A stretch of DNA of 64,000 nucleotides from Eledone cirrhosa. Its lineage: Eukaryota. Below the pieces are notes generated by a model. That model was not told the origin of the DNA. It saw only the letters and a program-made list of their open reading frames with translations, and made no database searches. Each line of letters opens with the position of its first letter. The first letter of the stretch is position 1. Location of the stretch: contig OZ024740.1 of NCBI GenBank assembly GCA_964016885.1, forward strand, positions 384,648,001 through 384,712,000. The letters are read 5' to 3'. Position numbers and translations under genes: made by a program. Positions 3,061 through 43,899 of the stretch are shown here, in pieces.

Positions 3061-3512
3061 GCAAAAGTTCTATTTAAAATTGTTGGGATACAACAAGTAA
3101 ATATTTTTATAACTGATATAAAGCACTCGACAAGTATTTGGAGTAGATATACGATATTAATAAATGGAAACTATATTTATAAAACCGTATTTATTTCATT
3201 ATACTTATTTCAGGGATACCAAATTAAATTATGGTATGCCTTCATCAGACAAAATACAATATATAACAGTTTTACAAATAAGCTTTGACGTACCGTATTA
3301 AAATGCAACCATTGTTTTTGAAAGTCATCCGGGTGACTTCCAAAAACAATGGTTGCATTTTAATAGGGTACGTCAAAGCTTAATTGTAAAACTGTTATAT
3401 ATTGTATTTTGTCTGATGAAGACATACCATAATTTAATTTGGTATCCCTGAAATATGTATAATGAAATAAATATGGTTTTATAAATATAGTTTCCATTTA
3501 TTAATATCGTAT
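3061..3512. mobile_element. Fold-back HHR element (family B) in (TA)n
   Basis: Inverted arms ~3151-3328 and ~3333-3511 around CATC-CG-GGTG. The left arm has a ~90-nt tail (3061-3150). Confidence 0.9.
3405..3469 (+). ncRNA. Type-I minimal hammerhead ribozyme, family B (other copies 3192-3256 -, 4233-4297 -, 5012-5076 +)
   Basis: Stem I TATTTTGT/ATGAAATA (two GU pairs); core CTGATGA; stem II AGGCATACC..GGTATCCCT; GAAA; near-palindromic stem III ATATGTAT; AUA cleavage triplet. Confidence 0.8.
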
Positions 3513-4189
3513 ATATATGTATATATATGTATATATATATATATATACATATATAAATACAAATATAAATATATATATATATATTTACATATATATTTAT
3601 ATATATATATGTATGTATATATATGTATATATATATACATATATAAATATATATATATATATATACATATATAAATATATATATATATATATATGTGTGT
3701 GTGTGTATGTATAAATTCGTGTATATTAATGTAATTTTTTAAAAATGGCTTTATACATTCGATGCACGTGTTACCGATGATGTTGATCCTTTCTTCTTCT
3801 CGGGTTATAGTTACTGTCGCTCAGAGAGTGGGATTGGTTCAGTGCACAGTCTTTTCTCACTTTAAAAAAAATCTTCACGCACAGGCATTTTACGATGGAA
3901 TTAATTGATAAATATTAATAATGGTATATTGTGAAATGGCAACACTCGATGACGAGGGGCAGCCCTCATATATATATATATAAAAGAAGTAAGTGACATA
4001 GTCACTACTTTAAAACTGGTAGTGTATGTTCTTCTAAATGCTTTTTATTAAACATACGGCGGTAAATTGCCAAATATACTATACATACATTCATGTATCC
4101 ATCGCTATTTCAGAACACCAATCCTAATATATATATATATATATATATATATATATATATATATATATATATATATTTATATATATATA

Positions 4190-5208
4190 TACGATATTAA
4201 ATAAATGGAAACCATATTTATAAAACCATATTTATTTCATTATACATATTTCAAGGATACCTTTTTAAATTATGGTATGCCTTCATCAGACAAAATACAA
4301 TATATACCAGTTTTATAAATAAACATTGACGCATCCTTTCAAAATGCGACCGTTAGTTTTGGAAGACATCAGGATAGTGGTTTGTTTATTTTAGTAAGTC
4401 GTTGTGTTAAGGAGAAGGAAAAAGACGGAGAGAGATAAAAGTGGAGAAAAGAAAGGGAGAGATAAATAATGAAAAAGAAAAAAGCAAAAAGAAAAAAAGA
4501 AAACAGAGAAAAACAACAGAGAGATATCAAACCACCAGACAGAGAGAAAAAATCAAGAGAGAGAAATATAGAGATAGAGAGAGGAGGAGAGAACGAAAAC
4601 CTTAAGTCATGTCATATTAAGTTGAGTTAACAATTAAGATGAAATGAATAAATAAAATTAGAAATATTAATATTCATGAATGGAATATACATATATAATA
4701 TGAGAAATTAATCATTGTTTAGTTATGATTAGATATTTAGTTTAAAAATTGAGATCAATATATTAAAAATTGGAATTTAAACATTACGAAATATATATAT
4801 TGCTCGAGAAATTACCTATCATATAGCACGTACATATATGCAAAAATACATAAATATATATATATATACACACACACTCAGAAATTACACACTATATCTA
4901 CTTGCCCATATAAAATAAAATAAACAAACCACTATCCTGATGTCTTCCAAAAGTAACGGTCGCATTTTGAAAGGGTGCGTCAATGTTTATTTATAAAACT
5001 GGTATATATTGTATTTTGTCTGATGAAGGCATACCCTAATTTAAAATGGTACCCTTGAAATATGTATAATGAAATAAATGTGGTTTTATAAATATAGTTT
5101 CCATTTATTAATATCGTATATTTACTCCAAATTCTTGTGGAGTGCTTTATATCAGTTATAAAAATATTTGCTTGTTGTATCCCAACAATTTAAATAGAAC
5201 TTTTGCAT
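4190..5208. mobile_element. Longer fold-back copy of family B with GA-rich spacer
   Basis: Arms ~4190-4392 and ~4917-5120 are inverted. The tail (5120-5208) is on the right arm and matches 3061-3150 in reverse complement. Both ends lie in (TA)n. Confidence 0.9.
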
Positions 5209-5226
5209 ATATATATCTATATATAT

Positions 5227-5413
5227 AACGAAGGAAATGTGGTAAGGAACCAGGTGGACCATAACGCACCAAAGTACTCAATGCTTGAGGTAGTAGAGTG
5301 GGTAATAGGAACCAGTAAGACCCCGACAGCTGAGCTCAAGCCGTTTCGACGGCTAATTCAGAATTAGCCGTCGAAACGGCTTGAGCTCAGCTGTCGGGGT
5401 CTTACTGGTTCCT
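5227..5413. mobile_element. Fold-back HHR element (family A) in (TA)n
   Basis: Perfect 52-bp arms 5308-5359 and 5361-5412 with a 1-nt centre, plus an ~80-nt tail 5227-5307. Confidence 0.9.
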
Positions 5414-5539
5414 ATATATATATATATATATATATATATATATATATATGTGTGTGTGTGTGTGTGTGTTAATTTGTTAATTTTATTCATGTTTGGCAGA
5501 TGACAGATGATCTTGATGGTATAGATGTTATCAAGGCAT

Positions 5540-6660
5540 TTTCATGTAACTGTGAATTTATGGTTCTTGGAAAATATCTCCTTTTTCATCATCACTTATC
5601 AGCTATCAACAAGAAATGTTTCTGCAATTTTTTCTCTCATTAACAATTGGAAACCAGGGTCACTATTTGTGTTTTATCCATGTTTTGGCGTTCACTACTA
5701 TTTCACCTACTTCCTAATTATACTATAAAAGACCTTGCATAGAATATCTAAAAATGATAATATACCTTCACACCTTACCGAGGATTTTTCCAAGCCTTGG
5801 TTAAAGCTTTAGTTTTCAGTGATTTCCATAAGGACACTAAATTGAATATTGCGAAGTTGAGATTGTAGATCTTGATGTTGCTCAAACGTGTTCATCCCGT
5901 TTGTTTTCCGTAAATCGTATTCTATCACCAAGCGCATTCTTTCCAAATATCTTCTTCCTCTTTAGGCCACAAATATACCTTTAACAATTGGTTGGATGGT
6001 GAAGGAAACACTAAGGAGAATAGATATGCACCAACATTTATTATCTTTACTGAAATGTTGCTGGCCACTTGGGGATTAGATACCTTTTGTAAAACTATTT
6101 GCACCTTCGATTCAGCAGTAGAAAGTTTGTTGAAGTTTTCCTGATATTTGCCCATTCCAGGAATGGATATATGAGAACAATTACTGATTTGATATTTACT
6201 CTTGTAGCTTGAATACTATTTCTTTCAAAATTCACGAACGTACTGAGTTCCCCACATCCATTAACATTAAAATAGAGTTATCGCTTTCGTTCACGCTATA
6301 CAAAACCAAGGTTACAACTATGTTTGGAGGTTTCATTCTTGAAAGCTTGGATATTCGGAATTAGTAACATCCAATACAACACTTCTTCTTTCCAGTTACA
6401 CCCCGCAGTTAATTAAATTATTTAACTTCTATTTGAATTGTTTGCTTTCATCAGTTGGTACGTAGCCTATTTTAGTAAGTTTATTTACATTATGTATTAA
6501 ATAAACTTTTCTAAATCATCATAACTCGATGGACTCTGTTACTACATGATATAATCATAACTGGCCTCTCAAGCTTTTTATCTTGTGATATTTCCGATTA
6601 TGATTCAGGAGTATTTCTTAGAGACTTTTTAATGCCTCTGATGAATTTAATATCTTTGGT
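5540..6660 (-). pseudogene. Possible decayed hAT-type transposase fragment
   Basis: Minus-strand translation near 5820-5880 reads QLRNIQFSVLMEITE, resembling the hAT 'L...FS...DE(S/T)TD' first catalytic Asp region. Many stops; boundaries approximate. Confidence 0.3.
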
Positions 6661-6896
6661 AGGTTTCAGCACCAATGTAGGAGACCCAGAATATACCCCT
6701 CTACAAAACTGATACACCAAGTCAGCAGACGAAAACAACGATAATAATCACGTTCCGAATTGATGGCATCTCTCTCTCTCTCTCTCTCTCTCTCTCTCTC
6801 TCTCTCTCTCTCTCTCTCTCTCTCTCTCAATATATATATATATACATACAGACACACACACACACACACACACACATATATATATATATATATATA

Positions 6897-42155: not shown

Positions 42156-42241
42156 TACCTATCTACCGGCCTTTCTGGAGAATCGTAAAAGCACATATCG
42201 TTATATGCTTTTTCTATGAAAATTAGTAGTGGGCAGACTAA

Positions 42242-42307
42242 TTTGAGATAGAGTGTCCGTGTTGTTTGCTCTGATCAGAGCAAACAACACGGACACTCTA
42301 TCTCAAA
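42242..42307. repeat. Perfect 66-bp palindrome with no spacer
   Basis: TTTGAGATAGAGTGTCCGTGTTGTTTGCTCTGA|TCAGAGCAAACAACACGGACACTCTATCTCAAA. Confidence 0.95.
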
Positions 42308-42715
42308 ATTATTTTTGAAAAGCATTTAGAAATGCGTAACCGGTAAAAACTTAAAAACTTAAAACCACAACTGAATAATAACCCATACGATTACTAATAC
42401 TCTTTTATTCCTAATTAAACCATTTTTCAACTGTGAACAATTTGTCAGCATTTTCTATTCCGTTTACCAATATATATATATATATATATATATATATATA
42501 TAATTATATATATATATATATATATATATATATAATTATATATATATATATATATATATATATATATATATATATATATATATATATATATATATAATTA
42601 TATATATATATATATATATATATATATATATATATATATATATATATATATATAATTATATATATATATATATATATATATATATATATATATATATATA
42701 TATATATATATATAT

Positions 42716-43232
42716 GCTGGCAAATTCCAACCCATACAATACAAACCTCCAAACAAAACCTGCAAACACAAATATAGTACAACACAACTACACAGGACCA
42801 GGAGGGACCGATATCCCCGTGTCAAAATCGATACGAGACCTGGGCATAGACATGAGCGATGATGCATATTTTTCCTCACACATCATGAAAGTGGCGATGA
42901 TGTGCAGACGACTCGCTGGCTGGATCTTGAGGACTTTCCGGACAAGAGACTGAGACACCATGTTGACACTATGGAGCACATTTATCCTCAGCCGCCTGGA
43001 CTATTGTTCCTAGTGGTGGTCACCCCATAGTGTCAAACTAACCACGGAGCTTGAGGCAATCCAGCGAAACTACACCAAGAGGATTACCACGATGAAGGAG
43101 ACAAGCTACAGGGAGAGGCTAAAGGAACTGAACCTCTACTCCTTGGAACGAAGATGGGAGAGATACGCAGTCATCTACATGTGGAAAATCCTGGAGGGAG
43201 TAGCACCAAACTTTGGCATTGGGAGCTACCAA
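42716..43232 (+). pseudogene. CR1/Jockey-group LINE RT C-terminal fragment
   Basis: [64 protein letters not shown]. Confidence 0.85.
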
Positions 43233-43471
43233 CGCTTGATTGGGTCAACTCCACCCCCTCCCCTCTTTCTCCTACTGGCAGGTTTAGCCACCATCTCCCC
43301 TACTAATTTGCAATCACAGAATTACTACTGACTTTTGACAATCACTTTGACCATATATGGAATTACCCCTTGAGAAGATCGGCTATTTAAATACCAGGAT
43401 AAATTTTCATTTAGTCCAGAATTAGCCGTCGAAACGGCTTGAGCTCAGCCGTCGGGGTCTTACTGGTTCCT
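43230..43471 (+). mobile_element. Family A single arm with complete variant HHR (43365-43458)
   Basis: ACCCC-TTGAGAA-GAtCGGCTA...TAGCCGTC-GAAA-CGGCT-tgagctc-AGCCG-TC-GGGGT. Confidence 0.85.
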
Positions 43472-43515
43472 ATATATATATATATGTGTGTGTGTGTGTG
43501 TGTGTGTGTGTGTGT

Positions 43516-43899
43516 CTGAAGGTAGCTAAGATGAATCCATAGGCGGTATGCCGGTTGAGCACTCTATGCTCTTACAGAGCAAAGTATGATATAATATAAA
43601 ACGAAAAGTCAGTAATGCATCTTAACTCAATTTATTGTGAGTTACAATTGTTTCCCCGACGGACAGCTCTAGACGCGAACATTGTGTGGATCTGTCTGAT
43701 TCTGGACCCGCAGGTTTGACGGACACGTCTAATGATTATTCTCAGTGAGAGAAATCATTAGACGTGTCCGTCGAACCTGCGGGTCCAGAATCAGACAGAT
43801 CCACACAATGATCGCCTCTAGAGCTGTCCGTCGGCGAAACAATTGTAACTCACAATAAATTGAGTTCAGATGCATCACTGACTTTTCGTTTTATATTAT
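43516..43899. mobile_element. Fold-back element family H
   Basis: Arms ~43590-43736 and ~43753-43899; left tail ~75 nt. HHR 3' half GAAA-CAATTG-TA at ~43836-43847; the 5' core is not visible in either arm. Confidence 0.85.

Follow-up and report, generated by a model that had tools for sequence, protein, structure and literature searches.

In the Penelope elements of Adineta, one of the inverted pseudo-long terminal repeats optionally carries a 31-bp tail at its 3′ end (PMC3846280). Members of the Hydra clade of Penelope-like elements (PLEs) often carry a 30–40-bp tail at one end, a feature ascribed to endonuclease resolution, and the origin of tandem and inverted structures and the bias towards microsatellites are named as open PLE questions (PMC8557442). 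In vitro, the Poseidon element PAc cuts and extends both target strands, and two internal reverse transcriptase (RT) start sites that bracket the tail have been mapped directly; the steps after priming were left unvalidated (PMC11167929). PLEs also contain hammerhead ribozymes, and a circular template has been proposed (PMC4209133). In L1 twin priming, a single RNA serves both ends of a break as template, each priming in a different region, and an inversion results (PMC2246262). Here we analyse 64,000 nucleotides (nt) of the Eledone cirrhosa genome (GenBank assembly GCA_964016885.1, contig OZ024740.1, positions 384,648,001 to 384,712,000 of the forward strand; hereafter the window), in which small, probably Penelope-like elements form inverted pairs, short at one outer end and tailed at the other. 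The one-sided tail (PMC3846280, PMC8557442) and the two tail-bracketing RT start sites (PMC11167929) are already published; the window adds a near-strict pairing of ends, a polarity of the arms, a TA match at the two sites and long tails.

Comparison of the window with itself reveals about a dozen small repeat families that have inserted into (TA)n tracts, and inverted pairs are frequent among them. We call a head-to-head inverted pair a two-armed insertion, and distinguish a short outer end from a long, tailed one, naming each arm after its end. Family letters A and B are those of the original prediction made for this DNA, C and G are probably the same, and all others are assigned here; every count comes from this one window of AT-rich, microsatellite-dense DNA. 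Mapped on one reference, all eight family A short ends (last element base at 5412, 30634, 35699, 39157, 43470, ~18484, ~24361 and ~41700) fall at −81 to −78 and all seven long ends (5228, 18287, 30456, 36307, 38091, 41504 and 24555) at −1 to +1, with none between, placing the short sites 78–81 nt before the long site. The family A ends originally predicted were right to within 2 nt, and four further ends fit the same sites. Tail length, taken by aligning an arm with its partner arm, is 80 nt in A, 90 in B, 55 in C, 63 in E, 136 in G, 90 in H, 34 in I, 57 in J, 45 in K and 76 in L; the tail of about 90 nt predicted for B is thereby recovered, and the lengths predicted for C to K, which came without coordinates, agree by size only.

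Among 20 two-armed insertions with both ends readable (10814, 42242–42307, 14894–14934 and 54879–55164 being excluded), 19 have unequal outer ends (one-sided binomial against 0.5, p = 2 × 10−5). Because single-insertion families define long and short by that very insertion, the stricter test lies in the multi-copy families A, B, C and H, where a long end is paired with a short one in 13 of 13 two-armed insertions (p = 1.2 × 10−4), one of them (near 48795) with a long end about 27 nt beyond the usual site. The predicted long-with-short pairing is thus upheld. Like-ended pairs are easier to spot, and detection bias therefore does not favour this outcome. The long end lies at the left in 11 insertions and at the right in eight, a mixture expected if either strand can take either site, and 36 of the 40 outer ends adjoin a TA run.

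Nine tail probes detected no tail copy beyond the short ends in this window, the youngest insertion (family E, with arms 100% identical) already has one short and one long end, and arms within one insertion are on average 88% identical (five pairs) compared with 78% to other copies; we therefore treat each pair as the product of one event. The alternative is that the asymmetry arose later or artificially, through TA expansion or deletion that removed a tail, through a tail that is merely flank of a master copy, or through assembly error. Such an origin would draw on the internal TA at the short site, on insertion into unstable microsatellites and on the difficulty of assembling inverted repeats. 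However, besides the missing displaced tails and the state of the youngest copy, no parent with two long ends occurs in the multi-copy families, tails diverge with their own subfamily and in the tandem families C and E run on into the next unit, and the arms of older copies differ by 11–22%, unlike a mirrored assembly error. We consider this explanation extremely improbable.

The short site resembles the target. Using fixed anchors and families in which a read-through copy makes the short site readable, at least 3 nt of TA after this site match between element and flank in nine of 12 families (A 3, B 5, C 5, D 3, E 4, I 3, K 3, L 5 and M 12 nt), giving p = 4 × 10−7 at the chance rate of about 0.11 per position taken from 12 arms (0.03–0.17), and p = 6 × 10−5 at a rate of 0.2. 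The long site is readable in C and E only, with matches of 3, 0 and 5 nt, that is, at least 3 nt at two of three readable ends. Short ends had been predicted to tend to coincide with an internal TA, and they do; the TA match holds for the short site in those nine families and for the long site at two of three readable ends, with G, H and J weak or mixed. A TA-rich short site is also what endonuclease resolution would leave, if both arms were first tailed and a GIY-YIG endonuclease then trimmed one at an internal TA, a single cut yielding one tailed and one untailed end (PMC8557442). Yet trimming offers no reason for a longer short arm, for tail-only arms or for solo tails, all described below, and it sits poorly with RT start sites mapped at both positions in vitro (PMC11167929); we regard it as decidedly unlikely.

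Beyond the original prediction, the arms display a polarity. By homology, the short arm extends beyond its partner in the 5′ direction by more than 10 nt in eight insertions (18287, 30456, 35699, 41504, 18547, 48795, 24946 and 37708); at 35699 the family arm proper is just 5–23 nt ahead and the remainder is an open reading frame (ORF) piece in the same orientation. Spacer composition weakly suggests the same for three more (4192, 27338 and 38091), whose spacers are 67–68% pyrimidine in short-arm orientation; upstream arm sequence is 65–71% pyrimidine in three arms and 49–63% in others. Among the 19 insertions there are also seven ties, with both arms reaching to within ~10 nt, and one whose direction is unassignable; in none does the long arm lead by more than about 10 nt. 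Three long arms extend barely beyond the tail (30456, 18287 and 37708), and two solo tails span approximately the short to the long site (18082 and 48488). Four of seven family A long arms start at −130 to −137, where stem II of the hammerhead lies, and RNA structure may therefore have halted copying in some of the ties.

These arm contents bear directly on the proposal, made for Adineta elements, of self-priming on an antisense template, or more generally fold-back on complementary DNA (cDNA) or antisense RNA, as the source of the second arm (PMC3846280). Seven near-perfect palindromic junctions would suit fold-back, as would real snap-backs of 10–33 nt at 18387–18410, 30550–30575 and 42242–42307, and it could still explain some ties and small snap-backs. 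A fold-back copy must, however, sit inside its template arm, and the eight homology-based insertions break that rule, with the tail on the long arm only and the upstream part on the short arm only. Fold-back and antisense self-priming are therefore excluded in those eight, so that each arm begins with its own target-joined 3′ end, and as an account of the second arm in general we find them very unlikely. Free 3′ ends fit the 3-nt junction overlap in family E and snap-backs of 10–16 nt at two family A junctions.

The 5′ ends of arms longer than one unit often lie at or near an upstream short or long site (18987, 25943, 29170 and 36173), at the short site in C, at the long site in E and 15 nt past the long site in another C arm, a pattern absent from M, D and 48884; the 5′ leader of the ORF piece begins with TA-rich bases, as though at a long site. 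Such ends would be consistent with a polymerase running into the other primer on an RNA that is tandem or circular. A position of the 5′ ends at the hammerhead cut was considered and dropped, as no inspected arm starts there.

From the fixed sites, pairing, TA match and polarity, all directly observed, we infer cleavage, priming and the number of RNAs involved, and we lean, by a modest degree over even, towards twin priming, in which the cut (TA)n strands both prime on one RNA, the short-site copy leads, the long-site copy trails and the two cDNAs are end-joined. The element protein would first cut both strands of (TA)n, for which the in vitro precedent is a Poseidon element only. The self-complementarity of (TA)n gives the two cut strands the same 3′ end, ...TATA, and each would then pair with 3–5 nt of UA-rich RNA, one at the short site and the other at the long site 34–136 nt downstream, as the junctions suggest. 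Judging from arm polarity, the polymerase primed at the short site would run ahead while that primed at the long site copies the tail and stops near the short site, stalls at the hammerhead stem or displaces the first cDNA; stopping, stalling or following behind would explain why the long arm is rarely further 5′. The cDNA 3′ overhangs on opposite sides of the break would finally be end-joined through short overlaps or snap-back inserts, producing a head-to-head repeat in which a short end is paired with a tailed one, and one primer acting alone would give single arms or solo tails. In the original prediction, two defined priming sites on a PLE RNA annealed to the two strands of a nicked (TA)n target; the two sites and the PLE assignment are supported, and base-pairing on one RNA is a reading that the polarity favours.

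The same pairing and TA match could arise from two RNAs held by an asymmetric protein dimer, each strand priming on its own RNA and the subunits being fixed to the short and the long site. A dimer has been modelled for the Poseidon protein (PMC11167929), and fully overlapping arms would then form without strand displacement. On its own, however, such a dimer does not predict that the long-site polymerase stops near the short site or never outruns its partner, and needs the added assumption of lower processivity at the long site; we judge it rather improbable, though the strongest competitor to a single RNA.

A more specific version of twin priming, plausible but short of an even chance in our view, is that one protein complex bound within the tail positions the two cut strands at two fixed UA sites on one RNA, which may be circular, with the polymerase of the short site in front and that of the long site following by strand displacement. 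A candidate site for protein binding, located between the two points of priming, is GAGYRCT, a motif chosen post hoc that occurs exactly in three of ten tails (0.1 expected) and with one mismatch in H (tails 5228–5307, 5117–5206, 43518–43593 and 7035–7124); it is also present at 23773, 24248, 30813–30820 and 44562, and inspection of published Hydra consensus sequences by eye shows similar words close to their 3′ ends or 5′ leaders. A common stable fold was not found among 11 tails (z from +1.2 to −3.0, below −2 in two), so we claim no shared stem–loop like that of PAc. If true, this programmed form would supply one mechanism for the tail, the inverted repeat, solo tails and the microsatellite bias, and would replace antisense self-priming.

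Several observations weigh against twin priming as formulated here. Numbers are small, and the insertion at 23432–24328, which the original prediction did not mention, has identical outer ends, the sole like-ended case among the 20. Short ends scatter over ~15 nt in H and ~10 nt in J, four of 40 outer ends do not adjoin a TA run, and the short-site match is only 1 nt in G, 1 and 3 nt in H and 2, 0 and 4 nt in J; the priming sites of PAc lack homology to the cut DNA (PMC11167929). The 10-nt limit for ties was set post hoc with the data already seen, and the long arm is slightly ahead at 6898 (4–10 nt) and 24361 (3 nt): when any excess is counted, the short arm leads in 11 insertions and the long arm in two (p = 0.022), or in eight against two for the homology cases alone (p = 0.11). 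The 522-nt spacer at 4192 contains a short TA run, and ties may reflect a shared stop or palindrome joining and not a shared RNA. Finally, the protein link described below concerns family A only, through one internally deleted chimeric copy.

A hammerhead descriptor gives 12 matches with a C3–G8 core, compared with 0.1 in 30 shuffles, and three with a U3–A8 core (two in A, one in G), compared with 0.4. Type I hammerheads are present in the terminal repeats of A, B, C, E (four of four unit copies), G and M, with one mismatch in H and in truncated form in L, and the descriptor has no match in D, I, J or K. In all arms whose sense is given by a hammerhead, the 3′ ends lie on the outside, and the pairs are thus head-to-head. 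In A and G the U3–A8 core is accompanied by a much extended stem II (43370–43453 +, 38272–38188 − and 28424–28517 +); this core variant is described for Schistosoma PLEs (PMC4209133). An Rfam search gave one HH9 match, below the gathering score and in a different arm, and nothing relevant in two arms searched singly, Rfam having no model of such minimal hammerheads; many Rfam microRNA matches were set aside as reflecting palindromes and microsatellites.

Coding evidence comes from an ORF fragment of family A at 35787–36140 (−), the N-terminal 118 codons fused to a 3′ piece, which contains RW (as RWR) and DKT motifs. HMMER returned 523 relatives at E ≤ 0.001 (best 3.5 × 10−17), and R–W and D–K are 90% conserved among 96 aligned relatives. 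Full-length relatives of 709–722 amino acids have weak Pfam matches below cut-off to RVT_1 (one of six) and GIY-YIG (one of six), a CxCX5C motif was seen by eye in five, and the fragment resembles by eye the start of published Hydra ORFs. Pfam does not recognise the fragment itself, a word-index homologue search with it gave no match, and tblastn of 20 long relatives located no further PLE coding piece in the window. Together with 5′ truncation, tandem and head-to-head inverted copies and a one-sided 3′ tail in 19 of 20 insertions, these features support classifying the elements as probable PLEs and the family A fragment as of the Hydra clade, which is stated to be marked by those two motifs and by its (TA)n target. 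One of ten tailed families (34 nt) matches the published 30–40-bp tail and the others have 45–136 nt; we treat tail length as a variable trait and no ground for exclusion from PLEs. Partial tandems of non-coding units, 440–635 nt long and bearing a type I hammerhead, make up families C, E and M.

Family A insertions lie at 5228–5412 (long end left, short right, 80-nt tail, shared arm parts 100% identical; tie), 18287–18484 (long left, consisting of tail plus 20 nt; short right, ~60 nt further 5′ and adjoining (TC)n; small snap-back at the junction), 24361–24555 (a subfamily; short left, long right, long arm ~3 nt further 5′; tie), 30456–30634 (long arm of tail plus 6 nt, snap-back at the junction, short arm right), 35699–36307 (short left, long right, with the ORF fragment inside in short-arm orientation), 38091–39157 (long left, short right, U3–A8 hammerhead and a 357-nt spacer, pyrimidine-rich in short-arm orientation) and 41504–41700 (long left; short right, ~13 nt further 5′). 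A single family A arm at 43351–43470 (+) ends at the short site and holds a complete U3–A8 hammerhead with its cleavage site 17 nt from the end. Family B is represented at 3062–3509 (long left, short right, 90-nt tail, no spacer, a hammerhead in each arm) and at 4192–5206 (short left, long right, the 522-nt spacer being tentatively pyrimidine-rich in short-arm orientation). Its remnant at 10814–10883, excluded from the count, has a short end at the left and a right arm interrupted by a Helitron-like element (10885–12152) in which an ORF piece, 11718–12152 (−), matches Helraiser (E = 1.5 × 10−6). The solo tail of a B-like subfamily at 18082–18166 (+) runs from near the short site to the long site.

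The family C insertion at 18547–19379 has a ~440-nt unit with hammerhead, a short arm of one whole unit at the left and a long arm at the right; at 48795–49436 the left arm ends ~27 nt past the long site and the right arm is a partial tandem with a short end, and a single C arm at 28728–29170 (−) comprises one unit plus ~15 nt and a long end. Family D (23432–24328) combines its identical outer ends with a right arm that is a partial tandem of a ~650-nt unit, and no convincing hammerhead was found in this insertion. Family E (24946–26937) is short at the left and long at the right with a 63-nt tail, a 528-nt tandem unit with hammerhead and a 61-nt spacer that belongs to the short arm. Family G (27338–28707) is likewise short left and long right, with a 136-nt tail, a U3–A8 hammerhead candidate and a 289-nt spacer, pyrimidine-rich in short-arm orientation. 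Family H occurs at 6898–7124 (short left, long right, 90-nt tail, long arm 4–10 nt further 5′), at 37708–38018, where the long arm is the distal 60 nt of the tail alone and the short arm is body, the arms without overlap having the classical twin-priming shape, and as a solo tail at 48488–48573 (+) from short to long site with TA on either side.

Family I has a single arm with a short end at 27109–27310 (+) and an insertion at 49474–49871 (long left, short right, 34-nt tail, 1-nt spacer at a short palindrome; tie). Families J (39199–39525; long left, short right, 57-nt tail, with other short ends at 2346 and 48669), K (2409–2924; short left, long right, 45-nt tail, 5-nt spacer; tie) and L (43518–43896; long left adjoining (CA)n, short right, 76-nt tail, 3-nt spacer; tie) have one two-armed insertion each. 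Family M (43957–44642, −) is a single-orientation partial tandem of a 635-nt unit with a strong hammerhead, and its end site is an internal (TA)6.

Other features accompany these families. A 41-nt palindrome in TA at 14894–14934 consists of two similar CTAG-bearing ends, and a similar end lies near 29338. Further inserts, each present once, bounded by TA tracts and containing hammerhead-like motifs, occupy 1551–1691, 30742–31280, 35554–35628, 37347–37568 and 41950–42470, the last with a 33-bp snap-back and perhaps representing a body plus a tail-only arm without overlap. Inverted repeat pairs outside the tailed families are found at 15–203 with 3770–3959 and at 54879–55164, and in a microsatellite at 32886–33090 (CT)n surrounds (TA)n in the form of small inverted repeats. 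An unrelated dispersed family, which we take to be SINE-like (short interspersed nuclear element), has copies at 7110–7320, 17592–17796, 24575–24660, 31639–31751, 35190–35457, 45441–45654, 48230–48428, 53899–54104 and 59068–59154, and decayed reverse transcriptase pieces resembling long interspersed nuclear elements lie at 16627–17310, 42700–43330 (by eye) and 56279–57837 (RVT_1 match 57334–57834).

The pairing and polarity rules make open PLE questions countable in any PLE-rich genome. If twin priming is correct, PLEs would routinely make both insertion strands from two target-primed cDNAs, as L1 does only by accident, with a bearing on the annotation of PLE ends and on the use of PLE proteins for insertion. 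Our literature search, which covered few subscription papers, found neither twin priming for PLEs nor counts of end pairs; the PLE papers of Pyatkov, Evgen'ev and Arkhipova from 2004–2006, which lie outside it, may contain related models.

As in L1 twin priming, each insertion here has two target-joined 3′ ends, a single RNA being suggested by polarity alone. Both sites here are internal and fixed, unlike in L1, and the arms mostly overlap fully; in L1, as Ostertag and Kazazian reportedly described in 2001, the first primer sits on the poly(A) tail and the second at a variable internal site, with little overlap. Non-coding tandem units with a type I hammerhead, as in C, E and M, recall the non-LTR (long terminal repeat) retrozymes of a recent preprint (bioRxiv 10.64898/2026.07.22.740005), whose available text leaves termini, tails and inverted forms untreated, with no occurrence of 'tail' or 'priming'. 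Like PAc, the elements have two start sites around the tail, an AT-rich target and 5′ ends away from the hammerhead cut; PAc starts in an AC-rich stem–loop within its ORF, whereas the sites here are TA-rich and match the target, and in the main text on PAc the inverted repeat is not traced back to its pair of start sites (PMC11167929). Also close is the Hydra clade, with which the window shares RW(K), DKT, the (TA)n target, a hammerhead near the 3′ end, 5′ truncation, an inverted copy at the 5′ end and a one-ended tail, and from which it differs in tails of 34–136 nt as against 30–40 and in the U3–A8 core of the family A hammerhead as against C3–G8 in the listed Hydra ribozymes; the portions of that report available to us leave pairing, polarity and TA match without quantification (PMC8557442). 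The footprint in the window is genuine and well reproduced, the trait behind it is one already known for PLEs, and the additions made here favour a specific, testable mechanism over a published one.

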